Of a stretch of DNA of 64,000 bases, positions 5,150 to 62,490 are shown one piece after another. A program made the translations under genes and the position numbers. Positions within the stretch are counted from its first letter, which is position 1. Each line of letters begins with the position of its first letter. Source of the stretch: Mobula hypostoma (Eukaryota); the NCBI RefSeq assembly GCF_963921235.1, contig NC_086097.1, positions 107,138,001 through 107,202,000 on the forward strand, given 5' to 3'. A model generated the notes under the pieces. The model saw only the letters and a program-made list of their open reading frames with translations. It did not search any database and was not told the DNA's origin.

Positions 5150-6135
5150 ACCATGAATTCCCCTCCATCATTGTTAACAAAACCCTTGAGAGCATCTTAT
5201 CCAATTCTAAGGATAGAGCTCTCCTAGTCCTCACCTTCCACCCAACTGGCTTCCACATTCAATAGATCATTTTCCGCAAGTTTGTTCACCTCCAAAGGGA
5301 TTCCACCACTTGGTATATCTTCCCCTGTCCTCCACTTACATCATTTCACAGGGACCATTCCCTTTGTAATTCCCTAGAATTTTCTTCTGTTACAACCAGC
5401 CACCCCTATCTGATGGCAATTTCCCTTGTACTTCTTCACCTCTTTCCTTCCCACCAAACAGGAGCACAGACAATCTTTCAAGGTGAAGCAGTGAATCACT
5501 TGCACCTCTTTCAACCTAGTGTACAACATTCAGTGTTCACAATGTGGTCTTCTCTGGACCAGACAAGCCAAATACAGATTGTGTGAGCATCTTGGAGGAC
5601 AGCTGCTTTCAGGCAACAGCACCCTTTCTACTTTAATTCTCCACTGCACCTTCATTCTGTGACCTCCTGTGCTGCTACAAAGAACCCAATGCAAGCTTCA
5701 AGGACCAGCACCTCATCTTCAGTCTGAATACATGCCCCTTTCTGGACTTCAGGTAACTTGATTTATCTGTCTTTTTTAGTCAATCAAGTGCTATTGATTC
5801 AGCTTCTTACTTTTCCTTTCTTTCTCCAGTAGTAGAAGACATGCCCAGCATAATCTTCTGGGCACACCTGCCTGCTCTGTATCTTGCAACTCCTATGTTT
5901 TCTTTGATCTCAGTTCTTTTGTCCATGTTTTCATTCTGTTATTGCTCCCATTCACTCATTCACCGAGTACTTTGTTTACAGTTTATCACCATGGTCACTT
6001 GATTTTATCCTATCAGAGACATCTGCCCTCCATGCAGCTAACAAGCTTCCTTTCAGTCCACAATTCTGAAGAAGGTTCTTTGACCTGAAACACTAACTCT
6101 GTTTCTCTTCCTACAAATGCAGACCAAACTGTTGA
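5150..6135 (+). mobile_element. Old degenerate Penelope-like element (linker/GIY-YIG region, 3' UTR, decayed hammerhead)
   Basis: Decayed homology to the PLEs at 22862-23866 (ctcaccttccaccc, ttcaaggtgaagcag, cacctcatcttc); ctgaagaagg...ctgaaac at 6066-6091. Confidence 0.7.
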
Positions 6136-6139
6136 CCAT

Positions 6140-6530
6140 TTGAAACTATGAAGGATCTTGAGTTGAGAAGACGATATAAAGAGGCTTTAGAGAACATAGA
6201 CAAGCTAAGTTTGTGTTGAGAATGTGGCAGATGGAACATAATAATGAAAAATGTGAGGTCATACACTTTGCTGTGCAAAATAGAAAAGCATTTTTAATCA
6301 AAGGTGATAAATTTTAAAATATTAGTATTCAGAGATACCTAGGTGTCCTTCCACACAAGTCACTAAATGTGTAGCAAGCAATTAGTAAGGCAAATTAGTC
6401 TTTATCAACAAGAAAATTTCAGTGCGGGAGTAATGATGTCCTTCTGTATTTGTATACAGCCTTGGTGAGATGACAGCTAGAAAATCATGTACAGTTTTGG
6501 CTTCCTTACCCAAAAGAGGACATTAATGGA
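6140..6530 (+). mobile_element. Old CR1 RT fragment
   Basis: tggcagatggaa...aaatgtgaggtcatacactttg and ccttggtgaga resemble CR1 WQM..CEVIHF..LVR. Confidence 0.6.
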
Positions 6531-6534
6531 GAAC

Positions 6535-7040
6535 ATAAAAACAAAAGATTTGGCGGATGCTAGAAGTCCTGAGAAACACGCATAAAATGTTTGAGGAACT
6601 CCGCAAGTCAGGCAGCACCTATTAGTTGAATGAACAGTCAATGTTTCAGACCAAGACCTTTCATGAAGACTGGAGAGGAAGGGGGCAGAGGCCAGAATAA
6701 GAGGTGAGGGGAGGGAAAGGAGTACAAGTTGGCAGGTGATAAGTGAGACTAGATGAGGGGAAAGGTGAGTGGTTGGGGAAGGCAAAATGAAACAAGAAGT
6801 TGAGAAGGGATAGGTAGAAGAGGTGAAGGGCTGAGGAAGAAGGAATCTAATGGAAGAGGGCAGTCTACTATGGAAAAAGTAGAAAGAGGAGAGGAAACAG
6901 GGAGGTGAGGGGCAGGGGAAGAAATTTAGAAGCAGTGAGAGGATAATCAGAATGAGGAATGGAAAAATAGAGAAGGGGAGGAGAAATTACTGGAAGGTAG
7001 AGAAACTGATACTCATGCCATCTGGTTGGAGGCTACCCAG
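6535..7040 (-). mobile_element. PLE 3' portion (endonuclease C-terminus, pyrimidine-rich UTR, pLTR with mutated hammerhead)
   Basis: Collinear with 12538-12970; hammerhead remnant at 6635-6672. Confidence 0.8.
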
Positions 7041-10306: not shown

Positions 10307-10309
10307 GAG

Positions 10310-10460
10310 TTCACAGCTTATCACCAGGGTCATCCTGATTTTATCCTGTCAAAGTCACCCACACTCCCTGCAGGTAACAAGCTTCCTTTCTCTGCACAGT
10401 TCTGATGAAGGGACTTTGACTGGAAGTATCAACTTGGTTTCTCTTCCCACAGATGCATCT
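10310..10460 (+). repeat. Old PLE 3' UTR/pLTR with decayed hammerhead (10398-10434)
   Basis: agtt-CTGATGA-agggactttgact-ggaagtatc-aact; collinear with 5975-6130. Confidence 0.65.
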
Positions 10461-12630: not shown

Positions 12631-12668
12631 CAGTCAACGTTTCGGGCCAAGACCCTTCATCAGGACTG
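12631..12668 (-). ncRNA. Minimal type I hammerhead ribozyme motif, intact core
   Basis: Minus strand CAGTC-CTGATGA-A-GGGT(CTTG)GCCC-GAAAC-GTT-GACTG: 5-bp stem I, stem II, palindromic AACGTT in place of stem III, GUU triplet. Confidence 0.85.
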
Positions 12669-13228
12669 AAGAGGGAGGGGGCAGGAGCCCTATAAAGAAG
12701 GTAGGAGGAGGGTGGGAAGGAGAAGGCTGGTAGGTGCCAGGTGAAAAACCAGTAAGGGGAAAGATCAAGGGGTGGGGGAGGGGAAGCAGGGAGGTGATAG
12801 GCAGGAAAGGAGAAGAAGGAATAGGGGAAAGCACAATGGGTAGTAAGAGGTGGAACCATGAGGGAGGTGATAGGCAGAGTGAAACTGGGATGGAGGAAGG
12901 GAGGGGGAGGGAATTACTGGAAGTTGGAGAATTCAATGTTCATGCCAAGGGGCTGGAGAATACCCGGATGGTATATGAGGTGTTGCTCCTCCAACCTGAG
13001 TTTGGCCTCATCATGGCAGTAGAGGCTCATGTATGGACATATTCGAATGGGAATGTGAAGCAGAGTTGAAGTGGGTGGCAACCAGGAGATCCTGTCTGTT
13101 GTGGTGGACGGAGCGGAGGTGCTTGATGAAGCGGTCCCCCAATCTGCGTTGGGTTTCACCGATGTAGAGGAGGCCGCACTGGGAGCACCAGATGCAATAG
13201 ATGACCCCCACAGACTCACAAATGAAGT

Positions 13229-13425
13229 TGCTGGTGAACGCAGCAGGCCAGGCAGCATCTATAGGAAGAGGCGCAGTCGACGTTTCAGGCCGAGATCCTG
13301 ACGAAGGGTCTCGGCCTGAAACGTCGACTGTGCCTCTTCCTAGAGATGCTGCCTGGCCTGCTGCGTTCACCAGCAACTTTGATGTGTGTTGCTTGAATTT
13401 CCAGCATCTGCAGAATTCCTGTTGT
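13229..13425. mobile_element. Miniature fold-back PLE pLTR insertion with 13-bp TSD
   Basis: 74-bp inverted arms 13225-13298 and 13306-13379; TSD tcacaa(a/g)tgaagt at 13216-13228 and 13426-13438. Confidence 0.9.
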
Positions 13426-13959
13426 TCACAAGTGAAGTGTTGCCTCACCTGGAAGGACTGTTTGGGGCCCTGAATGGTGGTGAGAGAGGAGGTGTAGAGA
13501 CAGGTGTAGCACTTACGCTTGCAGAGATAAGTGCTGGGTGGGAGATCAATGGGGAGGGACATGTGGACCAGGGAGTCGCGGAGGGATGATCCCTGTGGAA
13601 AGCGGAGAGGGGTAGAGAGGGAAAGATGTGCTTAGTGGTGGGGTCCTGTTGAAGGTGGCAGAAGTTGTGGAGGATAATGTGCTGGATCCGGAGGCTGGTG
13701 GGTGGTAGGTGAGGACAAGGGGAACTCTGTCCCTGATGTGGTGATGGGAGGAGGGGGTAAGGGCCGAAGTGTGGGAAATGGAGGAGATGCGGGTGAGGGC
13801 ATCATTGATGATGGCAGAAGGGAAGCTACGATCCTTAAAGAAAGAGGACATTTGAGATGTCCTGGAACGGAAAGCCTCATCCTGGGAGCAGATGCGGTGG
13901 AGACGGATGAACTGGGAATAGGGAATAGCATTTTTGTATGTGACAGAATCGGAAGAGGT

Positions 13960-14600
13960 ATGCCTTCTCTGACGATATCAATATGTCAGGCCCAGGATAA
14001 ATCCTTTGAGATGTTAATGCCAGGAACTTAAAACTGCTCACCTTTTCCAGTGCTGACCTGCTGGTTTGTATTCTACCAACTTATTCATGAAGTCCATAAT
14101 CAATTCCTTAGTCTTACTGATGTTGAGTGCAAGTTTTTAGTTGTAACACTATTCAACCAGCCGATTTATCTCACTCCTGTGTGCCTCTTCATCACCACCT
14201 GAGATCGTGCCAACAATTCTGTCACTGGCAAATTTATAGATGGCATTTGAGCTGTGCCTAGCCAGCCAGTTGTGAATGTAGAGAGAGCAGAGCAATGCGT
14301 TAAGCAAGTATCCTTGAGGTGTGCCGCTGTTGATTGTCAGAGATTTCTTTAAGCCAGCCTGGTTGAAGGCCCAAAAAATGATTGAGAAGCAATCAGGGTG
14401 TTCTGTCTCATGACTGTTGGTAATGGAGCTGAACCCCTCCAGTGCAGGCTTAACGTCTGCCAGGGGTTGAATATACTTTGCAACCAGGATGATGGCAGAA
14501 AACTCCCTTGGCGGATAGAACGGACGACACTTGACAACCTGATGTTCCATGTTGGGAGGGCAGGACTGAGACAGAACTACCACATCTATGCACCATAATG
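13960..14600 (-). mobile_element. Rex1/Babar LINE fragments (APE plus RT, internally deleted)
   Basis: ORF 14149-14844: KCRPFYPPREFS...TINSGTPQG...AIYKFASD. Confidence 0.85.
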
Positions 14601-18323: not shown

Positions 18324-18611
18324 TGACGCTCTGCGGGGCAACGGCAAGATGATCAGACTTACCCCACGGAGGCGAGGACAAGACAAGACAAGACATGGCC
18401 CCCCCGCGGGGCAACGGCAAGATGGCAAGACTTACCCCACGGAGGCGAGGACCAGACAAGACCAACACGAAAGCACACCAGACAGTACCTATCTAGCTCC
18501 AGCGATAGAACTAGACTGAGGTGCAGCCGAGAGCTGCAGACGAAGGCTAGAGGCGAGAGGGGCAGAGAAGGGATACAGACTGGGGGGGGATAGGACAGGA
18601 ATCACAGACCG

Positions 18612-18880
18612 CCAGGGCCAGGACTCAACTTGGAACTTGGAAGCCACCTGGGCCAGGACTCGACTCGGAACTTGGAAGCCACCAGGGCCAGGACTCGACT
18701 CGGAACTTGGAAGCCGCCAGGGCCAGGACTCGACTCGGTACTTGAATGACACCAGGGCCAGGATTCGATTCGGTACTTGAATGCCACCAGGACAAGGACT
18801 TGATTTGGTACTTCAATGCCACCGGATCCAGGACTTGACTTGGTACTTGAATGCTGCCGGAGCCAGGACTTGACTTGGAG
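18612..18880. repeat. 35-bp tandem repeat, about 8 units
   Basis: ccagggccaggactcgactcggaacttggaagcca units at 18612, 18647, 18682, 18717, 18752, 18787, 18822, 18857. Confidence 0.95.
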
Positions 18881-19301
18881 CCTTCGGATAGTGGCGAGCT
18901 CTCGACTCGGCCCGGGAACAGTAGACAGCGGTTCTTGATTCCCGCTTTGGCGGGGTAACTTGACAGGGTTGCTCTGGTGAGGAAAGGCGAATTACCGGCA
19001 CTCCCTTTGGGCGGAGACTAGGCTTGCTCCGGCCAGATGACATTGGCATGCCGTACCTTTGGTGACTTTGCAGACGCTTCTGCGCTGAATGGCTGAAAGC
19101 CAGAGACTATAAACTACCGGTTCAGCCGAGCGTTAATTGCCTCTAATCACCAAAGCCGAGGGACACAGGAAGACAGTGAATCAACGGTCCGGATCGTAAC
19201 ATAAACAAGGTAAATTTAAAGGGACCCTGATCCGGACCATGACATGTATCTACAAATCGTATGCTATGCACTTAGTTAGAAGAGACATGATGAACTTGGG
19301 C

Positions 19302-20066: not shown

Positions 20067-21374
20067 GTCTAAAGGCTCTGCATTTCAATCTGACTTGCAG
20101 AACAGCATGCTTTTCTCATTTCTTTTTTCTTAAAGAGGAACTGCATTTGTGACTTGAATCTGCTGTCTGGGGTCTGCTGATTTTGAGAATTGATAGATTT
20201 TTTAAAACTACTTAAAGCGATGTTGCTAACTGAAGTACCTATGACTGTGACTGTGGATTTCAGGTGCAGTAGACCTAACTGGAAATATTTGATGATTCCT
20301 CTTGGAGCTGCACACAAAGAGGCACAGTTTATCGGCACCACCTTGGGTGAGATAAGAGCTAAAGGTTGTAGGCTTAGTGTGAAAAGTGAAATATTGAAAG
20401 TGAATCTGAGGGGCAATGTCTTCGTTCAGAGGATGGTGTGAGGGTGGAGTGAGCTGCCAGTGGAAATGGTAGATGTGGTTTTAATTTAAGAGAAGTTTGG
20501 AAATGTATATGGATGAGAAGAATATAGAGCTATATTTTAAGTGCATGTAAATGGGACTTAGCAAAAGACAAGATCAGCATAAACTAGATGGGTGAAAGAG
20601 CCTCTTTCTGTGCTGTATTATTGGCAAAGAATTGAAGGCTGGTTAATGGAATTAGTATAGGTTGGAACTTGATGGCTGACAGACACAGTGGACTGAAGGG
20701 CCTTTTCTGTGCCATTGACATCATGACCACATGACTATCTGAGACACAAGAATGTTGTAAAGGAGGCTGTATTCTGGATGTAATCCCATACTATCCAAGA
20801 GGGTTGTACTTTGATCTCAAACTACAAGGAAAAGACTGCGTTAGAGCTGAAAGAAACTGGAAACATTGAGGTAAGGTAAAGAAATGTGAAATATTAGGAT
20901 TGTTCTTAGGGCCAGAGGAAACTCAGTGGAATTTTAGAGTTGTGATAAAGTTTCTTTATAGACATTCTGAACAAAGCTCTCTTGCCCCCCAACCCCACCA
21001 CACAGTATATCTTCTGTTAGAAAACTGGAACCTGGCTAGTCAGTGCTTGAAATCAAAAATACAAGATAATGAAGAAATACAATCACTAATCTCTGCATTT
21101 GCAAGCACCATTTTGGATATTGACACTCTTTATGTCTGAGAAGAAAGCTTCAAGCTGAGAATACATTTTGTGATGAGCAAGATATTAACAGCCTATAGCA
21201 ATGAGAGGGTTGTGTTATACCTGGTGCCATGACAATAAGGTCTCATATGAGTTTTGCTTCAGAGGACTTGATAGAGCTCTTTAATTGGAAATAGAGATGT
21301 ATAGTTATCATGCAACACACATAAAAGTTGCTGGTGAACGTAGCAGGCCAGGCAGCATCTCTAGGAAGAGGTGC

Positions 21375-21410
21375 AGTCGACGTTTCAGGCCGAGACCCTT
21401 CGTCAGGACT
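21375..21410 (-). ncRNA. Minimal type I hammerhead ribozyme motif, intact core
   Basis: AGTC-CTGACGA-A-GGGT(CTCG)GCCT-GAAAC-GTC-GACT on minus strand. Confidence 0.85.
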
Positions 21411-21705
21411 AACTGAAGGAAGAGTGAGTAAGGGATTTGAAAGTTGGAGGGGGAGGGGGAGATCCAAAATGATAGGAGAAGACAGGAGGGGGAGGGATGG
21501 AGCCAAGAGCCAGACAGGTGATAGGCAAAAGGGATACAAGAGGATCATGGGACAAGAGGTCCGGGAAGAAAGACAAGTGGGGGGGGGAGCCCAAAGGATG
21601 GGCAAGAGGTATATTCAGAGGAACAGAGGGAGAAAAAGGAGAGTGAGAGAAAGAATGTGTGTATAAAAATAAGTAACAGATGGGGTACGAGGGAGAGGTG
21701 GGGCA

Positions 21706-22830
21706 TTAGTGGAAGTTAGAGAAGTCGATGTTCATGCCATCAGGTTGGAGGCTACCCAGACGGAATATAAGGTGTTGTTCCTCCAACCTGAGTGTGGCTT
21801 CATCTTTACAGTAAAGGAGGCCGTGGATAGACATGTCAGAATGGGAATGGGATGTGGAATTAAAATGCGTGGCCACTGGGAGATCCTGCTTTCTCTGGCG
21901 GACAGAGCGTAGATGTTCAGCAAAGCGGTCTCCCAGTCTGCGTCGGGTCTCGCCAATATATAAAAGGCCACATCGGGAGCACCGGACGCAGTATATCACC
22001 TCATCCGACTCACAGGTGAAGTGTTGCCTCACCTGGAAGGACTGTTTGGGGCCCTGAATGGTGGTAAGGGAGGAAGTGTAAGGGCATGTGTAGCACTTGT
22101 TCCGCTTACACGGATAAGTGCCAGGAGGGAGATCAGTGGGGAGGGATGGGGGGGACGAATGGACAAGGGAGTTGCGTAGGGAGCGATCCCTGCGGAATGC
22201 AGAAGGGGGGGAGGGAAAGGTGTGCTTAGTGGTGGGATCCCGTTGGAGGTGGCAGAAGTTACGGAGAATAATATGTTGGACCCGGAGGCTGGTGGGGTGG
22301 TAGGAGGATGGAGTGAGGGGAACTCTATTCCTAGTGGGGTGGCGGGAGGATAGAGTGAGAGCAGATGTACGTGAAATGGGGGAGATGCGTTTAAGAGCAG
22401 AGTTGATAGCGGAGGAAGGGAAGCCCCTTTCTTTAAAAAAGGAAGACATCTCCCTCGTCCTAGAATGAAAAGCCTCATCCTGAGAGCAGATGCGGCGGAG
22501 ACGGAGGAATTGCGAGAAGGGGATGGCGTTTTTGCAAGAGACAGGGTGAGAAGAGGAATAGTCCAGATAGCTGTGAGAGTCAGTAGGCTTATAGTAGACA
22601 TCAGTGGATAAGCTGTCTCCAGAGACAGAGACTGAAAGATCTAGAAAGGGGAGGGAGGTGTCGGAAATGGACCAGGTAAACTTGAGGGCAGGGTGAAAGT
22701 TGGAGGCAAAGTTAATAAAGTCAACGAGCTCTGCATGCGTGCAGGAAGCAGCGCCAATGCAGTCGTCGATGTAGCAAAGGAAAAGTGGGGGACAGATACC
22801 AGAACAGGCACGGAACATAGATTGTTCCAC
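21706..22830 (-). CDS. PLE polyprotein C-terminal part: RT (YIDD), Cys-rich linker, GIY-YIG endonuclease; 5'-truncated
   Basis: 374-aa ORF: YIDD, FLDL, YYKPT, IPFSQFLRLRRICS, PCKRNKCYTC, VIYCVRCSRCGLLYIGET, R-F-EH, LEE, GMN. Confidence 0.9.
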   Translation of the reverse strand: MEQSMFRACSGICPPLFLCYIDDCIGAASCTHAELVDFINFASNFHPALKFTWSISDTSLPFLDLSVSVSGDSLSTDVYYKPTDSHSYLDYSSSHPVSCKNAIPFSQFLRLRRICSQDEAFHSRTREMSSFFKERGFPSSAINSALKRISPISRTSALTLSSRHPTRNRVPLTPSSYHPTSLRVQHIILRNFCHLQRDPTTKHTFPSPPSAFRRDRSLRNSLVHSSPPSLPTDLPPGTYPCKRNKCYTCPYTSSLTTIQGPKQSFQVRQHFTCESDEVIYCVRCSRCGLLYIGETRRRLGDRFAEHLRSVRQRKQDLPVATHFNSTSHSHSDMSIHGLLYCKDEATLRLEEQHLIFRLGSLQPDGMNIDFSNFH

Positions 22831-23732
22831 AAACCCAACAAAAAGGCAGGCATAGCTAGGACCAACGTATTATTCTTCGTAACTTCCGCCACCTCCAACG
22901 GGATCCCACCACTAAGCACATCTTTCCCTCCCCCACTCTCTCTGCATTCCACAGGGATCGCTCCCTACACAACTCCCTTGTCCATTCGACCCCCCATCCC
23001 TCCCCACTGATCTCCCTCCTGGCACTTATCCGTGTAAGCGGAACAAGTGCTACACATGCCCTTACACTTCCTCCCTTACCACCATTCAGGGCCCCAAACA
23101 GTCCTTCCAGGTGAGGCAACACTTCACCTGTGAGTCGGATGAGGTGATATACTGCGTCCGGTGCTCCTGATGTGGCCTTTTATATATTGGCGAGACCCGA
23201 CGCAGACTGGGAGACCGCTTTGCTGAACATCTACGCTCTGTCCGCCAGAGAAAACAAGATCTCCCAGTGGCCACGCATTTTAATTCCACATCCCATTCCC
23301 ATTCTGACATATCTATCCACGGCCTCCTTTACTGTAAAGATGAAGCCACACTCAGGTTGGAGGAACAACACCTTATATTCCGTCTGGGTAGCCTCCAACC
23401 TGATGGCATGAACATCGACTTCTCTAACTTCCACTAATGCCCCACCTCCCCCTCGTACCCCATCTGTTACTTATTTTTATACACATATTCTTTCTCTCAC
23501 TCTCCTTTTTCGCCCTCTGTCCCTCTGAATATACCCCTTGCCCATCCTTTGGGTTCCCCCCCACCCTTGTCTTTCTTCCCGGACCTCCTGTTCCATGATC
23601 CTCTCGTATCCCTTTTGCCTATCACCTGTCCGGCTCTTGGCTCCATCCCTCCCCCTCCTGTCTTCTCCTATCATTTTGGATCTCCCCCTCCCCCTCCAAC
23701 TTTCAAATCCCTTACTCACTCTTCCTTCAGTT

Positions 23733-23768
23733 AGTCCTGACGAAGGGTCTCGGCCTGAAACGTCGACT
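23733..23768 (+). ncRNA. Minimal type I hammerhead ribozyme motif, intact core
   Basis: AGTC-CTGACGA-A-GGGT(CTCG)GCCT-GAAAC-GTC-GACT; predicted cleavage after GUC at 23764. Confidence 0.85.
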
Positions 23769-24101
23769 GCAGCTCTTCCTAGAGATGCTGCCTGGCCTGC
23801 TGCGTTCACCAGCAATTTTTATGTGTGTTGCTTGAATTTCCAGCATCTGCAGAATTCCTGTTGTTAGTATAGTTATCATGATTGCTTCTTGCATTTTCAG
23901 GCCTGTCAGAAATTCTGCTAGCAATGGTAAACTCAGAGAAGTCTGGCAATATGTTTTTTGCTGAACGTTAACCGAACTTTAAGTCTGTCTCGTGCTATAT
24001 ATAAGCAGTCTATCATTAGTATACTTCTAGATAAGGAACATTATTGTGTCTAATGATTAAGCTCTCAGATTTCACAGAACCTTCGCAGAAGGACTCAATT
24101 A

Positions 24102-26329: not shown

Positions 26330-26420
26330 CAGTCCAGATGAAGGGTCTCAACCTGAAATATTGACTGTCCATTTCCTTCCACAGATGTCTATCCGGCTGA
26401 GTTCCTCCATCACTGTGCTT
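26330..26420 (+). repeat. Solo PLE pLTR remnant with mutated hammerhead
   Basis: CAGTC-CAGATGA-AGGGTCTCAACCT-GAAATATT-GACTG at 26330-26367. Confidence 0.7.
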
Positions 26421-31536: not shown

Positions 31537-31670
31537 CAAACATGAGGAAATCTGCAGATGCTGGAAATTCAAGCAACACACATAAAAAATGCTGGTAAAC
31601 GCAGCAGGCCAGCCAGCATCTATAGGAAGAGGTACAGTTGACGTTTCGGGCCGAGACCCTTTGTCAGGAC
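31537..31670 (-). repeat. Solo PLE pLTR beginning at the hammerhead motif
   Basis: Minus strand gtc-CTGACAA-AGGGTCTCGGCCC-GAAACGTC-aactg through gcatctgcagatttcctc. Confidence 0.85.
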
Positions 31671-36168: not shown

Positions 36169-36860
36169 TACAACTATATAACATATAACAATTACAGCAC
36201 GGAAACAGGCTATCTCGGCCCTTGTAGTCCATGCCAAACTCTTACTCTAACCTAGTCCCACCGACCTGCCCTCAGCCCATAACCCTCCATTCCTTTCCTG
36301 TCCATATAGCTATCCAATTTAACTTTAAATGACAACATCGAACCTGCCTCTGCCACTTCTGCTGGAAGCTCATTCCACACAACTAACACTCTCTGATTAA
36401 AGAAGTTCCCCCTCATGTTACCCCTAAACTTTTGCGCTTTAACTCTCAACTCAGGTCCTCTTGTTTGAATCTCTCCCACTCTAAATGGAAAAAGCCTATC
36501 CACGTCAACTCTATCTATCCCCCTCATAATTTTAAATACCTCTATCAAGTCTCCCCTCAACCTTCGATGCTCCAAAGAATAAAGACCCAACTTGTTCAAC
36601 TTTTCTCTGTAACTTAGGTGATGAAACCCAGGTAACATTCTCATAAATCTTCTCTGTACTCTCCCTATTTTGTTGACATCTTCCCTATAATTTGGTGACC
36701 AAAACTGTACAGAATACTCCAAATTTGGCCTTGTACAATTTCAACATTACATCCCAACTCCTATACTCAATGCTCTGATTTATAAACGCCAGCATACCAA
36801 AAGCTTTCTTCACCACCCTATCCACATGAGATTCCACCTTCAGGGAACTATGCACCATTA
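36168..36860 (-). mobile_element. CR1 lineage B 3' fragment
   Basis: Highly similar to 40351-41060; ORF 36252-36722. Confidence 0.92.
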
Positions 36861-38779
36861 AGCCTGCCTGTCCTGGTAGACCTATTGTCTCTGTTTGCTC
36901 CCGCCCCACCAAACTCATTTCTACATACCTCGGCAAGGTTTTATCCCCCCTTGTTCAATCCCTTCCTCCCTATGTTCGTGACACTTCTCACACTCTGAAA
37001 CTTTTTGATGATTTTAAGTTCCCAGTCCCCCACCACTTTATTTTCACCATGGATGTCCAGTCCCTATATACTTCCATTCCCCATCAAGAAGGTCTCAAAG
37101 CTCTCTGCTTCTTTTTGGATTCCAGACCCAACCAGTTCCCTCTACCACCACTCTGCTCCGTCTAGCGGAATTAGTCCTTACTCTTAATAATTTCTCCTTT
37201 GGGTCCTCCCACTTCCTCCAAACTAAAGGTGTAGCTATGGGCACCTGTATGGGTCCTAGCTATGCCTGCCTTTTTGTTGGCTTTGTGAATCAATCTATGT
37301 TCCAAACCTATTCTGGTATCTGTCCCCCGCTTCTCCTTCGCTACATTGACGACTGCATTGGTGCTGCTTCCTGCACGCATGCTGAGCTCGTTGACTTCAT
37401 TAACTTTGCCTCCAACTTTCACCCTGCCCTCAAGTTTACCTGGTCCATTTCCGACACCTCTCTCACCTTTCTAGATCTTTCTGTCTCTATCTCTGGAGAC
37501 AGCTTATCTACTGATGTCTACTATAAGCCAACTGACTCTCACAGCTATCTGGACTATTCCTCTTCTCACCCTGTATCTTGCAAAGTGCCATTACCTTCTC
37601 GCAATTCCTCCGTCTCCGCCGCACCTGCTCTCAGGATGAGGCTTTTCATTCCAGGACGAGGGAGATGCCCTCCTTTTTTAAAGAAAGGGGCTTTCCTTCC
37701 TCCACCATCAATTCTGCTCACAAATGCATCTCCCCCATTTCATGTACATCTGCTCTCACTCCATCCTCCCGCCACCCCACTAAGAATAGGATTCCCCTTG
37801 TCCTCACCTACCACCTCACCAGCCTCCGGGTCCAACATATTATTCTCTGTAACTTCCGCCACCTCCAAAGGGATCCTACCACTAAGCACATCTATCCCTC
37901 TCTGCATTCCGCAGGGATCACTCCCTACGTGACTCCCTTGTCCATTTGTCCCCACCATCCCTCTCCACCGATCTCCCTCCTGGCACTTATCCTTGCAAGC
38001 GGAACAAGTGCTACACATGCCCTTACACTTCCTCCCCTACCACCATTCAGGGCCCCAGACAGTCCTTCCAGGTGAGGCGACACTTCACCTGTGAGTCAGC
38101 TGGGGTGATATACTGCATCCGGTGCTCCCAATGTGGCCTTCTATATATTGGCGAGACCCGATGCAGACTGGGAGATCGTTTCGCTGAACACCTACGCTCT
38201 GTCTGCCAGAGGAAGCAAGATCTCACATTTTAATTCCACATCCCATTCCCATTCTGACATGTCTATCCACGGCCTCCTTTACTGTAAAGATGAAGCCACA
38301 CTCAGGTTGGAGGAACAACACCTTATATTCCGTCTGGGTAGCCTCCAACCTGATGGCATGAACATTGACTTCTCTAACTTCCGGTAAGGCCCCACCTCCC
38401 CCTCGTACCCCATCTGTTACTTATTTTTATGCACACATTCTTTCTCTCACTCTCCTTTTTCTCCCTCTGTCCCTCTGAATATACCTCTTGCCCATCCTCT
38501 GGGTTCCCCCCCCCCTTGTCTTTCTTCCCGGACCTCCTGTCCCATGATCCTCTCGTATCCCCTTTTGCCTATCACCTGTCCAGCTCTTGGCTCCATCCCT
38601 CCCCCTCCTGTCTTCTCCTATCATTTCAGATCTCCCCCTCCCCCTCCCACTTTCAAATCTCTTACTAGCTCTTCTTTCAGATAGTCCTGACAAAGGGTCT
38701 CAGCCTGAAATGTTGACTGTACCTCTTCCTAGAGATGCTGCCTGGCCTGCTGTGTTCACCAGCAACTTTTATGTGTGTT
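36860..38779 (+). mobile_element. 5'-truncated Neptune-type PLE (RT, GIY-YIG, pLTR with G8-mutated hammerhead at 38683-38718)
   Basis: MGTCMGPSYA, RYIDD, CKRNKCYTC, VIYCIRCSQCGLLYIGET across frameshifted ORFs. Confidence 0.93.
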
Positions 38780-38790
38780 AATAGAATGGG

Positions 38791-44746: not shown

Positions 44747-47700
44747 ACCATGAAAAGAGTGGTGAGGACTAGAGAGTCAGTGACAGCCCGGAGAGACGGC
44801 AACCAGGGCAGAACGGGCTGGCAACCCAATCTGCGTCCTCTGAGAGGAGGACTCCCACAAAAGCCACAAAGAATCTAAGGAAAAGATACCTCCAGGGGTG
44901 CCCGAGAGGCGGGGAGGATGAGCACCCCAGTCGGATGGACACAACGACATCAGACCCAGGCAATGAACAAACGACGATGAGGAAGCATGTGGCAAAATCT
45001 GCAAGAACGATCGTGGCTTGAAGATCCACCAAGCGAGGATGAAGTGTCTGGCGGGAGCAGGAGCAGCACAACGCGCAGGTGTCCAGCCTGGTGAGACGAA
45101 GGAGAGGCCAGGCCCGGAGTCATCCCATAGTGCCCGGAACCTCCAAGTGTTGCAAACTAATGCCTCTAACATGAAGTCTAACAGGAGGTGGATCAAATGG
45201 CCTGCAGCTAACATGACTTCACTGTGGACACAGTTTGATGACGATGTTAACCAAATTCTGGAGGCAACGACGAAGGGAGGGGTTGATAGGAAGCTGCAAA
45301 CCATGACAACAATTATTGTTAGTATCGCAGCTGAACGGTTCGGAGAAGAGGAGAAGGAAGGCTCCAAAACATCTTACTCGAAGAACCAAAGAGCATCGAG
45401 GATCCACAACATCAGGCAGGAGATGAAAGCGCTGAAGTCCCGATACAAGGAGGCAGGAGAAGAGGAGCACATTAGCTTGGCCCAGCTGATGTGCATACTA
45501 CGAAAGAAGATCAGGGTCCTCCGCCGGGCAGAGTGGCATCGGAGGTGGCGGCGTGAAAGGGCCCGAAAACGTGCTGCCTTTATCGCCAACCCCTTCAAGT
45601 TCACCAAGGAGTTGCTGGGGGAGAAGCGCAGTGGGAAACTGGCCTGTTCGCAGGAAGACATAGACCAACATCTGAAGAAGATATATAATGATCCTGAAAG
45701 AGAGCAGGAGTTGGGAGAGTGCAACATCCTAATAGACCCACCAGAACCGGATGTGCAGTTCGACATGTCAGAGCTGCAGCTAAAGGAAGTCAGAGAGGTC
45801 GTCCGCAAAGCAAGGGCAAGCTCGGCTCCAGGACCAAGCAACACCTCGTACAAAGTGTACAAGAACTGCCCCAAACCCCTGCTGCATCTGTGGAAGATCC
45901 TGAGAATCTTCTGGAGAAGGGGGAAGATCCCAGAACAGTGGAGAGTGGCTGAAGGGGTGTGGATCTCGAAGAAGGAAAATGCCACCCAGATAGATCAGTT
46001 TCGCATCATCTCCCTGCTGTGTGTCGAGGCGAAGATCTTCTTCAGTGCAGTTTCTAACCGGCTGTGCACCTACCTAGCAAAGAACACCTATATTGATACA
46101 TCAGTCCAGAAGGGTGGCATTTCAGGGATGCCAGGGTGTCTGGAGCACATCGGTGTGGTGACACAGCTCATCAGGGAAGCCAGAGAGAACAAGGGCAACC
46201 TGTCAGTGTTGTGGCTCGACCCGGCAAATGCATACGGCTCCATTCCGCACAAGCTGGTGCAGCTCACACTGACCAAATATCATGTCCCCAGCAGAATCAG
46301 AGACCTTATCGCTGATTATTACAGCAACTTCAGGATGAGGGTCTCTTCAGGAGCAATTACATCAACCTGGCACAAGGTGGAGATTGGCATTATCACAGGG
46401 TGCACTATCTCAGTGACACTGTTCTCTCTAGCCATGAACATGCTCACTAAGTCTGCTGAACCAGAGTCCAGAGGGCCCAGAATGAATTCCGCTCAACGGC
46501 AACCACCTATCAGGGCATTCATGGATGACCTCACAGTCACCACAGAATCAGTCCCAGGCTGCCGGTGGATTCTGCAAGGGCTTGAAAAGCTGGTGGAGTG
46601 GGCCCGGATGAGTTTCAAACCTGCCAAATCAAGATCGATGGTGCTGAGGAAAGGGAAGGTGGAGAACAAGTTCCGGTTCAGCATCGCAGGCACAGCCATC
46701 CCAACCATCACAGAAAAGCCAGTCAAGAGCTTAGGCAAAGTTTTTGACAGCTCTTTAAGGGGCACAACATCCATTCAGGCAACCTTCACCGAGTTGGATG
46801 GCTGGCTGAAATCTGTGGACAAGTCTGGCCTACCTGGGAAGTTTAAAGCCTGGGTGTATCAGCATGGCATTCTTCCCAGAATCCTGTGGCCCCTCCTCGT
46901 CTATGCAGTTCCAATCTCGACAGTCGAAACTTAGAGAGGAGGGTTAGCAACCACCTCAGGAGACGGCTGGGGCTGCCAAAGAGCCTGAGCAGCATCGCAC
47001 TCTATGGACACCACAACAAACTGAAACTGCCCTTCAAATCCCTGGAGGAAGAATTCAAGGTAACAAGAGCCAGTGAAGTGCTACAATATAGGGACTCAAG
47101 TGATCCGAAGGTGGCTAGAGCAGGGATCCAAGTAAGTACTGGCAGGAAGTGGAGGGCAGAGGAAGCTGTTCAGGAGGCAGAGGCGAGGCTGCGTGACAGG
47201 AGGCTGGTGGGAGTGGTCACACGAGGCCGAGCTGGGCTAGGATCTTTTCCAACTCCCCAAATGGACACCAGAGGGAAGGAAAGGCGTCGTCTAGTTCAGG
47301 AGGAGGTGAGAGCAGTAGTGGAGGAGATAAGAGCCTGCAAGGTGGTGGGAATGAAGCAACAGGGAGCTTGGACAAGATGGGAGAATGCGGTTGAGAGGTA
47401 AGTGACCTCGGCTGATCCATGGAAAGCCGAACCACACCGCATCCAATTTCTCATCCAGGCAGTGTACGATGTGCTTCCAAGCCCATCAAACCTGCACACA
47501 TGGGGCAAGGCAGAGTCACCTGCGTACCCACTGTGCTCCAAGCGAGGAACCCTGGAGCACATCCTCAGCGGTTGTACAAGGGCACTTGGTGAGGGACGGT
47601 ACAGGTGGAGGCATGATCAGGTCCTGAAGACCATCGCTGAAGCCGTCAGCGCAGGAGTTCAGTGGGCGAAGCGGTCCCGACCCTCCAAGCAGACCATTGC

Positions 47701-48329
47701 CTTTCTCAGAGCTGGGGAGCAACCAATACCTGCCAAAAGAACATCTGCAGGCATTCTGACCTCTGCAAGGGAATGGCAGCTGTTGGTGGACCTCGAAGGG
47801 CAGCTGAAGTTCCCCAACCATATCGCAGCCACCACCCTACGACTAGACATTGTCCTAGTGTCTGAGTCTACTAAGCAAGTGGTGCTGCTGGAGCTGACAG
47901 TCCCATGGGAAGATAGCTTGGAGGAGGCCTTTGAAAGGAAGCTCTTCAAGTACGCAGGACTGGACAGCAACTGTCAGCAGGCTGGATGGAGAGCGAGGTG
48001 TCTCCCAGTGGAGGTTGGTTATAGGGGATTCGTAGCCCGTTCTTTAGTTACAGCCTTCAGCATTTTGGGCATCGAGGGAGAGAGGAAGAGGAGGGCCATC
48101 CGCAGTACCACCGATGCGGCAGAGAGGGCCTCAAGATGGCTGTGGCTCAAAAGAGGGGAGCCATGGAGTCATAAGTAGCTCGCCATCTGAACACAAGCTG
48201 GGGTCTGATCAGCCCTGGCTGGGTCACCTGGAGGAGGTTGTATGATGTTGAAAGATCCGAAACACCCGATGATTCCAGGAACATCACTGAAGATGTGTCC
48301 AGAAGCATCAATAGATGTATGTACACAGT
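44747..48329 (+). mobile_element. Hero-like non-LTR retrotransposon with restriction-like endonuclease, near full length
   Basis: N-terminal CGKICKNDRGLKIH; RT WLDPANAYGS, TGCTIS, FMDD (45018-46934); knuckle PLC...EHILSGC, RHDQVL, R(L)DIV...ELTVPWE, ERK..KY (47402-48178); imperfect 7-bp TSD ggtgaca/ggtaaca. Confidence 0.88.
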
Positions 48330-48404
48330 GGTAACATATATGTATCTTGATAATAAATTTACTTTAATTAGAGATGGCAGAAGTTATGAAAAGTAACTTT
48401 ATCT

Positions 48405-48915
48405 ACTGCCAGAATGTGGCCACACTCAGGCTGGAGGAGCAGCACTTTATATTCCATCTGGTAGCCTCCAATCCAATGGCATGAACATCGATTTATTGAA
48501 TTTATGGTAATTCCACCCCTGCCCCACCATTCCCATACCTGTTTCTCTCTCTCAGCTCATCTCCTTACCTGCCCATCATCTCTCTCTGGTGCTCCTTTCC
48601 TTTCTTCCATTGTCATCTGCCCTCTCCTATCAGATTACCGCTTCTCCAGCCCTTTATCTCTTTCACTTATCAGCTTCCCAGCTCTTTACTTCACCCCTCC
48701 CTCTCTCCCAGTTTCACCTATCACCTACCACCTTGTACTTCTTCCTCCCCTTCCCCCACCTTCTTGCACTAACTTCTCATCTTTTTTTCTCCAGTCCTGA
48801 TGAAGGGTCTCGGCCTGAAATGTTGATTTGTCCATAGATGCAGCCTGACCTGCTGAGTTCCTCCAGCATTTTGTGTGTGTTCCTTGGATTTCCAGAATCT
48901 GCAAATTTTCCCTTG
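48405..48915 (+). mobile_element. PLE 3' portion with hammerhead motif at 48793-48828
   Basis: ATLRLEEQH-like start; AGTC-CTGATGA-AGGGTCTCGGCCT-GAAATGTT-GATT. Confidence 0.85.
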
Positions 48916-55730: not shown

Positions 55731-58657
55731 ATATTTGTATAAGGGCTAAGAGAGTTGTAAAAGTGCGCCTGAAGGCTTTGTGTGTCAATGCAAGGAGCAT
55801 TCGTAACAAGGTGGATGAGTTGAAAGTGCAGATTGTTATTAATGAATATGATATAGTTGGGATCACGGAGACATGGCTCCAGGGTGACCAAGGCTGGGAG
55901 CTCAACATTCAGGGATATTCAATATTCAGGAGGGATAGACATGAAAGAAAAGGAGGTGGGGGGCGTTGCTGGTTAGAGAGGAGATTAACGCAATAGAAAG
56001 GAAGGACATAAGCCGGGAAGATGTGGAATTGATATGGGTAGAGCTGCATAACACTAAGGGGCAGAAAACGCTGGCGGGAGTTGTGTACAGGCCACCTAAC
56101 AGTAGTAGTGAGGTTGGGGATGGTATTAAACAGGATTAGAAATGTGTGCAATAAAGGAACAGCAGTTATAATGGGTGACTTCAATCTATATGTAGATTGG
56201 GTGAACCAAATTGGTAAGGGTGCTGAGGAAGAGGATTTCTTGGAATGTATGCGGGATGGTTTTTTGAACCAACCTGTCGAGGAACCAACTAGAGAGCAGG
56301 CTATTCTAGACTGGGTATTGAGCAATGAGGAAGGGTTAATTAGCAATCTTGCCGTGAGAGGCCCCTTGGGTAAGAGTGACCATAATATGGTGGAATTCTT
56401 CATTAAGGTGGAGAGTGACATAGTTAATTCAGAAACAAAGGTTCTGAACTTAAAGAAGGGTAACTTTGAAGGTATGAGATGTGAATTAGCTAAGATAGAC
56501 TGGCAAATGACACTTAAAGAGTTGACGGTGGATATGCAATGGCAAACATTTAAAGATTGCATGGATGAACTACAACAATTGTTCATCCCAGTTTGGCAAA
56601 AGAATGAATCAAGGAAGGTAGTGCACCCGTGGCTGACAAGGGAAATTAGGGATAGTATCAATTCCAAAGAAGAAGCATACAAATTAGCCAGTAAAAGTGG
56701 CTCACCTGAGGACTGGGAGAAATTCAGAGTTCAGCAGAGGAGGACAAAGGGCTTAATTAGGAAGGGGAAAAGAGATTATGAGAGAAAACTGACAGGGAAC
56801 ATAAAAACTGACTGTAAAAGCTTTTATAGATATGTGAAAAGAAAAAGATTGGTTAAGACAAATGTAGGTCCCCTACAGACAGAAACAGGTGAATTGATTA
56901 TGGGGAGCAAGGACATGGCAGACCAATTGAATGACTACTTTGGTTCTGTCTTCACTAAGGAGGACATAAATCTTTGGGAAATAGTAGGGGACAGAGGGTC
57001 CAGTGAGATGGCAGAACTGAGAGAAATACATGTTAGTAGGGAAGTGGTGTTAGGTAAATTGAAGAGATTAAAGGCAGATAAATCCCCAGGGCCAGATGGT
57101 CTGCATCCCAGAGTGCTTAAGAAAGTAGCCCAAGAAATAGTGGATGCATTAGTGATAATTTTTCAAAACTCTTTAGATTCTGGACTAGTTCCTGAGGATT
57201 GGAGGGTGGCTAATGTAACCCCACTTTTTAAAAAAGGAGGGAGAGAGAAACCAGGGAATTATAGACCGGTTAGCCTAACATCGGTGGTGGGGAAACTGCT
57301 AGAGTCAGTTATCAAAGATGTGATAACAGCACATTTGGAAAGCGGTGAAATCATCGGACAAAGTCAGCATGGATTTGTGAAAGGAAAATCATGTCTGACG
57401 AATCTCATAGAATTTTTTGAGGATGTAACTAGTAGAGTGGATAGGGGAGAACCAGTGGATGTGGTATATTTGGATTTTCAAAAGGCTTTTGACAAGGTCC
57501 CACACAGGAGATTAGTGTGCAAACTTAAAGCACACAGTATTGGGGGTAAGGTATTGATGTGGATAGAGAATTGGTTGGCAGACAGGAAGCAAAGAGTGGG
57601 AATAAACGGGACCTTTTCAGAATGGCAGGCAGTGACTAGTGGGGTACTGCAAGGCTCAGTGCTGGGACCCCAGTTGTTTACAATAAATATTAATGACTTG
57701 GATGAGGGAATTAAATGCAGCATCTCCAAGTTTGCGGATGACACGAAGCTGGGCGGCAGTGTTAGCTGTGAGGAGGATGCTAAGAGGATGCAGGGTGACT
57801 TGGATAGGTTAGGTGAGTGGGCAAATTCATGGCAGATGCAATTTAATGTGGATAAATGTGAAGTTATCCACTTTGGTGGCAAAAACAGGAAAACAGATTA
57901 CTATCTGAATGGTGGCCGATTAGGAAAAGGGGATGTGCAATGAGACCTGGGTGTCATTATACACCAGTCATTGAAAGTGGGCATGCAGGTACAGCAGGCG
58001 GTGAAAAAGGCGAATGGTATGTTGGCATTTATAGCTAGAGGATTCGAGTACAGGAGCAGGGAGGTACTACTGCAGTTGTACGAGGCCTTGGTGAGACCAC
58101 ACCTGGAGTATTGTGTGCAGTTTTGGTCCCCTAATCTGAGGAAAGACATCCTTGCCATAGAGGGAGTACAAAGAAGGTTCACCAGATTGATTCCTGGGAT
58201 GGCAGGACTTTCATCTGATGAAAGACTGGATGAACTAGGCTTATACTCGTTGGAATTTAGAAGATTGAGGGGGGATCTGATTGAAACGTATAAAATCCTA
58301 AAGGGATTGGACAGGCTAGATGCAGGAAGATTGTTCCCGATGTTGGGGAAGTCCAGAACGAGGGGTCACAGTTTGAGGATGAAGGGGAAGCCTTTTAGGA
58401 CCGAGATGAGGAAAAACTTCTTCACACAGAGAGTGGTGAATCTGTGGAATTCTCTGCCACAGGAAACAGTTGAGGCCAGTTCATTGGCTATATTTAAGAG
58501 GGAGTTAGATATGGCCCTTGTGGCTACGGGGATCAGGGGGTATGGAGGGAAGGCTGGTGCAGGGTTCTGAGTTGGATGATCAGCCATGATCATACTTAAT
58601 GGTGGTGCAGGCTCCAAGGGCGAATGGCCTACTCCTGCACCTATTTTCTATGTTTCT
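55731..58657 (+). mobile_element. CR1 lineage A ORF2 copy nested in lineage C
   Basis: ORFs 55763-55996, 56081-57943, 57971-58570; 6-bp TSD atgaga at 55725-55730 and 58658-58663. Confidence 0.95.
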
Positions 58658-59119: not shown

Positions 59120-61050
59120 ACAGGGCAGGTGAAAGAAGTGTATAGTGGAATACGTCTTATGATTGGAATGCCATTAGTTTAAAGATAATTATGGAGACAG
59201 ATAGGATTGGTCCTTGGGTTGAGATTCTAAATTGAAGAAATACCTATTTCATGGCATCAGAAAGGATTTGGCAGGTGTGGATTGCGACGGGAATGTTTGC
59301 TAAGTGTGAAGCCTTCAAAAGTGAAATATTAAAAGTATGGAGTTTGTATATTTCTTTTAGAATAAAGGTCAAGGCTAAAATTTTTTTGGAACCTTGATTT
59401 TTGAGAGGTATTGAGGTCCTAGTTAAGAAGAAGAAGGAGATATATCGCAAATAGAGACAGCAAAGAATAAATATGGCACTTGAGGAGTATAAGAAATGTA
59501 AGAGAACATTTAACAGGGCTAAATCTGATTGCTCTGGCAGACAAGGTGAAAGAGAATCTCAAGGACCTCTACAGATATATTAAGTAAAAGGATAGCAAGG
59601 GACAAAATTGGTCCATTTGAAGTATAGCGTAGTCATTTATGCATGGAGCCAAAAAGGACTTTTGTATCAGTATTTACTCAAGATATGGACATAGAGTCTA
59701 TATACAGTAACTGAGACAAAACAGTTGTGAAGTCATGGACTATATTTGGATTACAGAAAAGGAAATGCTTTCTGTCTTGAGGCAAATTAGGGAGAAGATG
59801 TCCCCTTGGGCCTTATTGGAGGCCAGTGCAGAAATTGCAGGGTCTCTAGCACAGAAGTATTTAAAACATTGTTAATAATGGGTGAGATGCTAGAGGACTG
59901 AAGCATAGTTAATATTCTTCATTCTTCAAGAAAGGTTCTAAGAATAAATTGGGAAACTACAGGCCAATGGGCCTGATGTCAGTAGTGGTTAAGTTATTAG
60001 AGGGTATTCTAGGGGATTGGATATATAAGTATTTGGATAGACAGCGACTGATTAGCCATTGTTTCTCAGCATAGGGTCCATAGACACCTTGCTTAATGCC
60101 ATTGGTCCCATGGCATAAAAAAAGCTGGGAACCCCTAGATTAGAGATAGTCAACATGGCTTTATGGTCGTGTCTAACCAATCTTATAGAATTTTTTGAGG
60201 AGATTTCTGGAAATATGATGAAAGAAAGTCAGTGTGCATTGTCTTCATGGAATTAGTAAGCCCTTTGACAGAGTCCCCCATGGGATGCTGGTCCAGAAGC
60301 ATCAGTCACTTGGCATTTAGGATTTGATTCCATATTGGATTAGTAGGAAAAGCTAGAGAATGGTAGTAGGTGCTTACCTCTGACTGGAGATCTGTACTAG
60401 CAGGAGTTGGTGCTGGGTCCGTTGTTGTTTATCATCTATATCAATGATCTGGATGTTAATGTGGTAAACTGAATCAGCAAATTTGCAGATGACACTAAGA
60501 TAGGGGGTGTAGTGGACAATAAGGAAAACTATCAAAGCTTGTAGCAGGATCTGGACGAGCTGGAAAAATAGGCTGAAAAATGGTAGATGGAACTTAATGT
60601 AGACAAGTGTGAGGTGTTGCACTTTGGGAGGTCAAACCATGATAGGACTTACACAGTGAATGGTTGGGAACTGAGGAATGAGGTAGAACAAAGGGATCTT
60701 GGAATGCAGATTCGTAATTTCTTGAAAGTGCATCACAGGTAGATAAGGTCAAAAAGAAAGCTTTTGGCATTTAACCTTTATAAATCAGAGTATTGAGTGA
60801 AGTTGCGATGTTATGTTGAAGTTGTTCAAGATGTTGGCAAGACCAAATCTGGTTTATTATTTGCAGTTCTGGTCAGCTACTGGTGGAAATTGTGGATGCA
60901 AGTTCAATTGAATCAATTAAGAAAAGTTTGGATGTGCATGAATAGAAAGGGTATGGAGGACTAAGGTCCAGATACAATTTGATGGGTCTAGGCAGAATAA
61001 CAGTTTGGCATGGATTAGGTGGGACAAAGGGCTTTTCTGTTGACCCAGAT
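59120..61050 (+). mobile_element. Old degenerate CR1 ORF2
   Basis: aactacaggcca, tttgcagatgacactaag, aagtgtgaggtgttgcactttggg motifs with many stops. Confidence 0.8.
60057..60137. mobile_element. hAT-type MITE, same family as 19987-20066 in opposite orientation
   Basis: ccatggcataaaaaaagctgggaacccct is the reverse-complement homologue; gattag on both flanks. Confidence 0.6.
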
Positions 61051-61342
61051 GAGTGCATTCCAACAGCCTTCAAGAAGCTCAACAACATTCAGAATAAGCA
61101 ATCTAGATGACCGATTACCTCAACCACCACTCTACAGTACATTTTCATTTATTCTACCACCAGCTCACAATGGCTGCAGTGTGTTATTCACAATCTGCAT
61201 GCAGTGGCTGTCTAGGTACTCTGACAGTAATTTCCGGCCCATGAACTCCGCCATCAAGAAGGATAATGGCAACAGACACAGGGACACCACTACTTGTAGC
61301 TTTCTCTCCAAGCTGCACACCATTCTCATTTGGAAAGAAGAG

Positions 61343-62018
61343 AAGATGGCAACGCGATGCAGCGCGCAGCGGGCACTCCTGTGATGAATATCTGTTATTT
61401 GTCAAGTAGGATGCCGTGCACAATCCTGATTTGATGGAGACAGACGTGAGAAGCATGGAGGAACATCTGGTGAAACTTCTGAAATGCCTGTTTCGCTGCC
61501 GCTGCTACTGTGCAATCCAGAATCTCCAGAGGGAAAGCCCTGAATCCTTGGCTTTGCCTATTGCTTGGCGGCTGGGGCCGGGGTCGAAGCGCTCGGCAGA
61601 GATGGTGCTTGGTGCTTGGTGTCGGAGGGCTGGTCAGAGGCTCGAAGTTTTCGGACGGACTCAGAGTCGGCTGTGGTCAGGTGCTTCCAGGGTGCTGCAT
61701 CAGCAAGTTTGCAGCCCTGGAAGTTCATGGCAGGGAGAGTTTCTTCCTTCTACCATCTGCGTGAGATGATGGGGCTATCAGGACTTTGAGACTTTTATTT
61801 TACCATGCCCATAGTCTGCCCTTTATCAAATTACGGTATTACGGTAGTGTTGTAACTATATGTTATAATTATGTGTTTTTTGTCAGTTTTAGTCTTGGTC
61901 TGTCTTGTGTTTTTCTGATATCATACTGGAGGAACATTGTATCATTTCTTAATGCATGCATGCATTTCTAAATGACAATAAACGAGGATTGAGTGTCCTC
62001 ATAATCTAATCTAATCTA
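61343..62018 (+). mobile_element. Apparently full-length non-coding retroposon (AAGATGGC start, AATAAA plus (AATCT)n tail)
   Basis: Second copy at 9880-10306(-); no recognisable ORF. Confidence 0.75.
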
Positions 62019-62154
62019 AAAAATATATATCATTTGTCACTAATTGTCATTGGCTATAAATTCTGGAACTTCCAATTTGATCTTCTCATGACCTTTGGGG
62101 ATTTCTTCTGAGTGCTCTGGTTTCCTGCCACATTCCAAAGACATACAAGTTGGG

Positions 62155-62490
62155 TTATTCCCCAATCTGAGCTTTTACCTCTTCTCACTTGCCTATTGCA
62201 AGCCCCTGGGTCTTCTCCTTCCCTTTCTCCTGTGGCCTTTCTCCTCTCCAGCCCTTAACACTTTCCTACCCACCTGGCATCACCTATCACCTTCCAGCTA
62301 GCCTTTTTCCCCCTCTCCCCACCTTTATATTCTGTCATCTTTCCCCTTCCTTCTCAGTCCTGAAGAAGGGTCTCAGCCTGAAACATCGAATGTTTATTTA
62401 TTTCCTTAGACACTACTGACCTGGTGAGTTCCTCCAGCACTTTGTGTGTGTTGCTCAGATTTCCAGCATGTGCAGACGTCCTCGTGTTTA
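62155..62490 (+). mobile_element. PLE 3' UTR/pLTR with hammerhead motif (62355-62392), inserted in a V-domain SINE (about 62095-62635)
   Basis: CAGTC-CTGAAGA-AGGGTCTCAGCCT-GAAACATC-GAATG; SINE core before and SINE tail after. Confidence 0.75.

Follow-up and report, generated by a model that had tools for sequence, protein, structure and literature searches.

The DNA analysed here, a 64-kb stretch of the genome of Mobula hypostoma (assembly GCF_963921235.1, contig NC_086097.1, positions 107,138,001 to 107,202,000; hereafter the window, in whose coordinates the features are given), carries dispersed hammerhead ribozyme motifs of a Penelope-like element (PLE). A search profile for modules, each composed of a hammerhead and the adjoining tail of the pseudo-long terminal repeat (pLTR), was built from eight window copies, and it detected 14 modules in the window, against zero in the reversed-DNA control. 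The 14 modules represent 12 insertions, two of which (13229-13426 and 21313-23866) each contain two head-to-head arms within one target-site duplication (TSD). Three modules are wholly intact, a fourth keeps an intact core within a fold-back, two are partial and eight have core lesions, many of them at CpG sites; the CUGANGA, GAAA and NUH core elements are complete in 4 of the 14. The original prediction, which was headed about eleven motifs and described some as badly decayed, listed 12 sites. All 12 are present, the listed positions being a mixture of CTGA starts, AGTC starts and low ends of minus-strand copies. Ten of these sites match the 36-mer at 23733 with 0-8 mismatches (30 Markov-shuffled windows: no match at ≤10 mismatches), and the copies listed at 6066 and 10398 belong to an older family (similarity 78.5% across 121 nt). 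The proposed pLTR context applies to all copies, in that each retains the beginning, if not more, of the pLTR tail that follows downstream; remnants of the PLE open reading frame (ORF) lie on the same strand, at most 800 nt upstream, at 6 of the 12 sites.

Intact cores and stems had been claimed for 12631, 21375 and 23733, and were found at 12632-12667 (minus strand), 21375-21410 (minus) and 23733-23768 (plus). The first of these hammerheads, with a G10.1-C11.1 pair and a GUU triplet, ends an older PLE copy. The other two belong to the short-tail and long-tail arms, respectively, of the single young insertion at 21313-23866 (14-bp TSD at 21299-21312 and 23867-23880). These arms end at +66 and +102 from the cut site, and the cut predicted after 23764 is rightly positioned. 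The insertion also contains an open 387-amino-acid (aa) C-terminal part of the PLE ORF, with the reverse transcriptase (RT) thumb, a Cx4Cx2C linker and a GIY-YIG domain (21709-22869, minus), as well as the C-terminal ORF part of the inverted arm (22863-23434, plus). At the 5' edge of stem I lies TCAGTT(AG) (23727-23734, plus), which we take to combine an initiator-like motif (TCAGTT) with a splice-acceptor-like YAG, as judged from consensus motifs; it falls within the -21 to -39 zone of the genomic 5'-end pile-up described below. The fold-back insertion at 13229-13426, also young, is bordered by a 12-bp TSD with one mismatch (13217-13228 and 13427-13438). Its plus arm is long-tailed and has an intact core at 13298, with stem I truncated at the 5' end, inside a fold-back of -141 kcal/mol, while its minus arm is partial (13275-13299) and short-tailed. 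This insertion splits an older PLE ORF remnant (12923-13962, minus; 63-82% aa identity), and sits in the GIY-YIG region of that older copy.

The remaining modules are damaged to various degrees. A partial module at 2948-3021 (plus), found by the profile and absent from the original prediction, starts within GAAA and continues into the pLTR tail. The decayed old-family hammerhead at 6062-6098 (plus; stem I AATT/AACT, cleavage triplet lost) follows a C-terminal remnant of an old PLE ORF with 37-49% aa identity to the full ORF (5158-5732, plus). At 10398-10434 (plus), also of the old family, the proposed paired change of stem I (AGTT/AACT) is present in the sequence, but the core of this copy is decayed (GGAAG, TATC). 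Further decayed hammerheads are located at 6636-6671 (minus; core TTCATGA, CATT), 26331-26366 (plus; a solo copy without a pLTR upstream, CAGATGA, TATT), 31636-31671 (minus; a solo copy with G8 lost, a 5' end at -31 and a long tail), 38683-38718 (plus; G8 and C15.2 lost) and 62356-62391 (plus; older family, CATC, GAAT). A frameshifted PLE ORF remnant reaching from the RT to GIY-YIG (85-96% aa identity) occupies 36860-38384 (plus). The older-family copy at 48793-48828 (plus), accompanied by a short ORF remnant (48395-48504), is near-intact as had been proposed, but has lost C15.2 (TGTT) and with it the ACGT palindrome.

The parent element was recovered as a full PLE unit of 3,513 bp, present as a natural tandem at another locus of the genome (L062), with a hammerhead at 4191, the ATG at 4361, the ORF and a second hammerhead at 7704. 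The unit is thus composed of a hammerhead, a 170-nt leader, a 1016-aa RT/linker/GIY-YIG ORF, a pyrimidine-rich 3' untranslated region and the next hammerhead, and the hammerheads flanking the full ORF on both sides establish their pLTR location. The frame at 21709-22869 has relatives of 96% identity elsewhere in the genome with frames of >1,000 aa. The 1016-aa protein, a single ORF with the RT followed by a C-terminal GIY-YIG, matches RVT_1 (E=2.8e-5) and GIY-YIG (E=0.0011), both below the Pfam cut-offs, and the residues DKG, YIDD and a CCHH-type GIY-YIG are visible. The linker between the RT and the endonuclease (EN), CKRNKCYTC (Cx4Cx2C), fits the CX2-5CxxC motif of PMC8557442, which marks Neptune or Nematis PLEs according to that source. 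Filed by motifs rather than by a tree, the element appears to be a Neptune-type EN+ PLE, and the pLTR tandem, the inverted 5' copy and the 30-40 bp tail were all found in Neptune-type copies here. In all families, roughly 20 nt beyond the cut site (window 23769-23790), there is a second conserved polypyrimidine-YAG followed by an ATG; in the young family this ATG opens a 16-codon upstream frame. GT..AG joints into either YAG site were found neither among the 15 listed of 210 joints nor among 11 further joints.

The features of a minimal type I hammerhead are readily recognized. Stem I (4-5 bp) and stem II have 87.8% of their cells paired, versus 5-47% when slid (a control that leans toward structure), the additional nucleotide that separates position 9 from 10.1 is A in 61 of 62 old copies, and the palindromic 15.2-16.2 segment without loop 3 is ACGT in all 26 matches to a minimal descriptor. 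These matches were obtained in 1.064 Mb, with none in the reversed and none in the complemented sequence. The proposal of minimal type I hammerheads of PLE pLTRs is borne out by the core, the stems and the ORF-flanking location. When young copies (35) are compared with old ones (36), the predominant letter is different in 4 of the 36 columns of the hammerhead, in 8 of the 12 of the linker and in 11 of the 38 of the tail; the four hammerhead columns, which all lie at CpG sites, are N7, 11.1, a base of the loop and one CpG column. Moreover, loose ends just before stem I (position 4191 of L062) were seen in 5 of 8 contig runs from other organisms, the run type being guessed or unknown. This conservation between families and the divergence of contigs just before stem I argue that active lineages keep the motif. 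Inserted old copies, in turn, decay neutrally: their core mutates like the tail, with changes at 34/324 non-CpG core positions (10.5%), 56/598 positions of other hammerhead columns and 157/1625 tail positions (9.7%), and 40% at CpG columns.

The family had been predicted to be very large, and genome-wide counts bear this out. In the 3.48-Gb genome, exact motifs of the young family number 51,903 and intact cores 88,610 (controls 0 in both cases), i.e., about 25,000 intact cores per Gb or one per 39 kb. A density sample of eighty 10-kb stretches, taken at round coordinates of large contigs (800 kb), contained 174 modules, 19 of them intact, which extrapolates to about 7.6e5 modules and 8.3e4 intact ones in the genome; decayed copies number several hundred thousand. 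With 14 modules in 64 kb, the window is at genome-average density and contains no cluster. A literature search turned up no count for cartilaginous fishes, although the supplements of PMC4209133 and bioRxiv 10.64898/2026.07.22.740005 may list such motifs; for the latter, tandem retrozymes were sought in a single Chondrichthyes genome.

Read-through of the cut site, two classes of 3' ends, the pairing of arms, a peak of 5' ends and the TSDs were observed directly in the genomic copies. End coordinates were defined with the cut site as +1 and an anchor at +11 to +35, and the upstream reach was followed with four-base probes. Genome-wide, 112,844 anchors were counted, of which 102,756 reach +2, 99,616 reach -7, 78,729 reach -30, 60,828 reach -39 and 50,366 reach -63. 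Per nucleotide, the fewest copies are lost across the cut site (0.39% from +2 to -7); the loss then rises to 1.02% (-7 to -30), peaks at -30 to -39 (2.87%) and falls to 0.79% (-39 to -63). At most 3,140 of 102,756 copies (3%) could begin at the cut site. The 5' ends were mapped directly in 57 rows, namely anchor matches 1-30 plus whichever of matches 31-100 lacked the -39 probe; 12 rows, reaching beyond -60 or carrying an indel, were set aside. Among the remaining 45, 28 ends lie at -21 to -36 and one at +1. A start of the copies at the cleavage site was rejected on the basis of the probe ladder and the mapped ends. Four ends at -44 to -46 (loci L208, L168, L170 and L166) closely follow, on the 3' side, an adenine at -47 that resembles a branch point (TACTCAC or TACTAAC); they are too few to interpret. 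The 3' ends form two classes, at about +65 (short tail) and +105 (long tail). Forty inverted pairs, defined as arms within 4 kb, were collected from all loci examined, a non-random sample with marginals of 96 long and 86 short tails; 39 of them combine one long and one short arm (p=7e-11 against 50%). Of 11 fold-backs tested, 8 had TSDs of 13-16 bp.

These ends fit a mechanism, which we infer, in which the element protein nicks both target strands 13-16 bp apart and two cDNAs are primed, one per internal start site, as occurs with the PAc element in vitro (PMC11167929). The two cDNAs would then be joined in head-to-head orientation, so that one arm carries a long tail and the other a short one. 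The pile-up at -21 to -39, with its initiator-like TCAGTT, may correspond to the 5' end of the element RNA, and we slightly favor this reading of the peak. It is possible, with a lower probability, that the pile-up reflects a structural stop, at which the cDNA folds back or anneals to the second cDNA, or that it is linked to the splice acceptor (YAG) at this position. The hairpin formed by GACG/CGTC and AGTC/GACT is complete at -23 to -32, and junction palindromes were earlier ascribed to self-priming (PMC3846280). However, self-priming of one cDNA predicts equal tails, in contrast to the 39 of 40 unequal pairs, while annealing of the stems predicts arms ending at about -32 and +1, and few such pairs were seen, most close pairs ending both arms upstream of the cut site. 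As for splicing, a polypyrimidine tract and YAG precede stem I in most copies retaining the 5' flank, and an intron of D. virilis ends at helix I (PMC4209133); yet copies with ends at -28 to -36 showed no common upstream exon, and spliced copies carrying one were not seen. A circular template, as in the model of PMC4209133, in which unit-length RNA cut by the hammerhead is circularized by ligation and then reverse-transcribed, would likewise yield read-through at +1 (by religation), and tandem units do occur (L062). This model is unlikely here: a circle has no 5' end, whereas the loss per nucleotide peaks at -30 to -39 and most mapped ends fall in a narrow zone, and most copies are short or inverted rather than tandem.

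Whether the inserted ribozymes could cut depends on a partner, since stem III consists of A-C-G-U only. The predicted monomer fold pairs the core GACG with the cleavage-site CGUC (-11.0 versus -7.0 kcal/mol), which counts in favor of the overall reading given below. In the model, which ignores tertiary contacts, the active dimer (-11.5 kcal/mol, with a dimer helix of 4 bp) is much less favorable than the inactive duplex (-30.3 kcal/mol). Published minimal hammerhead ribozymes (min-HHRs) had no activity as monomers and low activity as dimers in vitro (PMC4209133), and the Anolis hammerhead cuts only when the PLE protein is bound (PMC11167929). The original prediction inferred that ribozymes at this density could cut host pre-mRNAs if the window is an intron. 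Dispersed intact copies in introns would then dimerize in cis or in trans, or bind PLE protein, and cleave often enough to matter. The number of intact cores, many of them presumably intronic, and the protein-assisted cleavage in Anolis speak for such cutting, but we regard it as very improbable. Of the 174 modules sampled, just 19 are intact, old copies decay neutrally, covariation is at shuffle level, many copies lie in fold-backs, and same-strand motif pairs 95-125 nt apart (the spacing counted) number 73 genome-wide, with none in the window, where the two young intact copies, one on each strand of a single insertion, point away from one another; the weak dimers of the model and of the in vitro work point the same way. 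No exon-like Pfam match was found in 75 of the 121 unique window ORFs (the omitted 46 lie in a long interspersed nuclear element, LINE, at 44.7-48.4 kb), and the longest 150 of 517 neighboring ORFs gave retroelement domains and one weak DUF only, a search that short exons would escape. No host exon was thus found, a result that neither backs nor contradicts the intron premise; that host pre-mRNA is cut is conceivable in principle but unsupported here, and the scattered copies are likely mostly decayed and inert toward host RNA. One arrangement seen, and only one, would be able to dimerize readily in cis: a minisatellite in which the hammerhead motif by itself, 36 bp long, is repeated 13.4 times (L231:308-788, approximately 14,479,107-14,479,587 of contig C40), with an A-A mismatch in stem I. 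At L232:1939-2374 there are three identical 145-bp units, each with inverted hammerhead arms.

We therefore read the motifs as minimal type I hammerheads of the pLTR of a Neptune-type PLE, whose cargo was copied from uncut RNA and whose copies are mostly decayed and probably inert on host RNA, with a probability of roughly 85%. Several observations weigh against this reading. The clade assignment is motif-based. The Rfam covariance models gave no hammerhead match (none among the 10 window matches at E≤10; those to mir-3926 and mir-H2 at 13270-13334 were rejected as reflecting the fold-back only). The 10.1-11.1 pair is G-C in 33 and G-U in 31 of 72 rows; in the youngest family it is G-U, or A-U if read in an alternative register. 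Covariation support in a family alignment, whose absence is one half of the refuting condition named in the original prediction, was not found above shuffles among 87 of 228 modules (86 gap-free ones and 10398, whose 3' end is one base out of register): the score was 0.162 versus 0.162, and pairs with double changes numbered 3 versus 2.3. A stem I T-A variant, associated in decayed copies of one old family (11/18 versus 23/104, p=0.0014), did not occur among the first 100 of 186 intact-core matches. Finally, the upstream losses of the probe ladder include indels and subfamily differences. Given the shuffle-level covariation, the fold rests on motif identity and conservation between families; folding z-scores of single motifs are close to zero.

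The role of PLE hammerheads was stated to be unclear (PMC8557442), and the value of the present data is mechanistic, in that cut-site read-through, the 5'-end peak at stem I and the long-plus-short pairing in young copies separate the models. As reported for related ribozymes, the hammerhead may cut only as a dimer or together with the element protein, in which case selection would keep the ribozyme in active lineages and not in inserted copies. More speculatively, the element RNA may start at the first hammerhead arm, and cutting may clip a capped leader of 32-36 nt, switching the RNA off instead of releasing unit-length RNA; we hold this proposal to be tentative. If it were true, some 100,000 young insertions would record the copying of uncut RNA alone, by two protein-primed cDNAs with different start sites, which would explain the purpose of PLE hammerheads and provide in vivo support for two-strand priming.

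Other repeats are also present in the window. A near-complete non-LTR element with an RT, the only one in the sample, is located at 44967-48178 (plus), and a C-terminal CCHC and a restriction-like motif were recognized in it by eye. An array of 35-bp tandem repeats occupies 18577-18913. Two LINE copies of the CR1/L2 type, 94-96% identical, are placed in inverted orientation about 53 kb apart (1-4617 and 55900-58621).

Among known systems, the closest are the min-HHRs reported in fish Xena, Poseidon and Neptune elements (PMC4209133). Shared features include the type I core, the extra nucleotide after A9, the stem I of 4-5 bp, the lack of loop 3, the palindromic 15.2-16.2 segment, the pLTR location and the occurrence mostly as solo copies or opposite-strand pairs. 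The copies described here differ in a 4-bp stem II and, in the youngest family, in the G-U or shifted A-U at 10.1-11.1. They also form nearly one invariant motif without covariation, in contrast to the highly variable families of PMC4209133, and compensatory change among copies, a supporting feature in that study, was not found.

The Anolis Poseidon element PAc (Frangieh et al. 2024, PMC11167929) is alike in having two internal RT start sites bounding the tail, and in the cutting and extension of both strands with uncut RNA as the template. For PAc, no RNA-seq ends are reported at the cut site, and its hammerhead is protein-assisted and dispensable for insertion. Unlike PAc, the present element has a Neptune-type linker, and the first ATG of its long ORF lies 170 nt past the hammerhead start, while that of PAc lies in stem II; the evidence for PAc is biochemical, whereas ours is genomic. 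Insertions of EN+ PLEs (PMC8557442, PMC3846280, PMC2377424) likewise comprise partial tandems, an inverted 5'-truncated copy, TSDs and a 30-40 bp tail that is often one-ended, with a promoter and an intron in the pLTR. Inverted arms and a one-sided tail are thus already published for PLEs; the counts added here to what those sources describe are the 39 of 40 asymmetric pairs, the 13-16 bp TSDs and the 5'-end peak at the 5' edge of the ribozyme.

Non-LTR retrozymes (PMC7229834, bioRxiv 10.64898/2026.07.22.740005) also carry type I hammerheads in animal repeats and are PLE-related. They are, however, tandem 150-450 bp units giving circular RNA, with canonical ribozymes in PMC7229834, whereas the copies here are dispersed or inverted; retrozyme-like short tandem units were not found at the 95-125 nt spacing beyond the pairs counted above. 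In number, the intact cores exceed the min-HHR totals of PMC4209133 about tenfold (88,610 versus about 4,000 in coelacanth and 9,000 in Xenopus) and come near the total for axolotl, in which up to 120,000 retrozyme copies were reported (PMC7229834). The motif has the sequence features of a PLE min-HHR, and the ribozyme family is of a known kind at an unusual scale.

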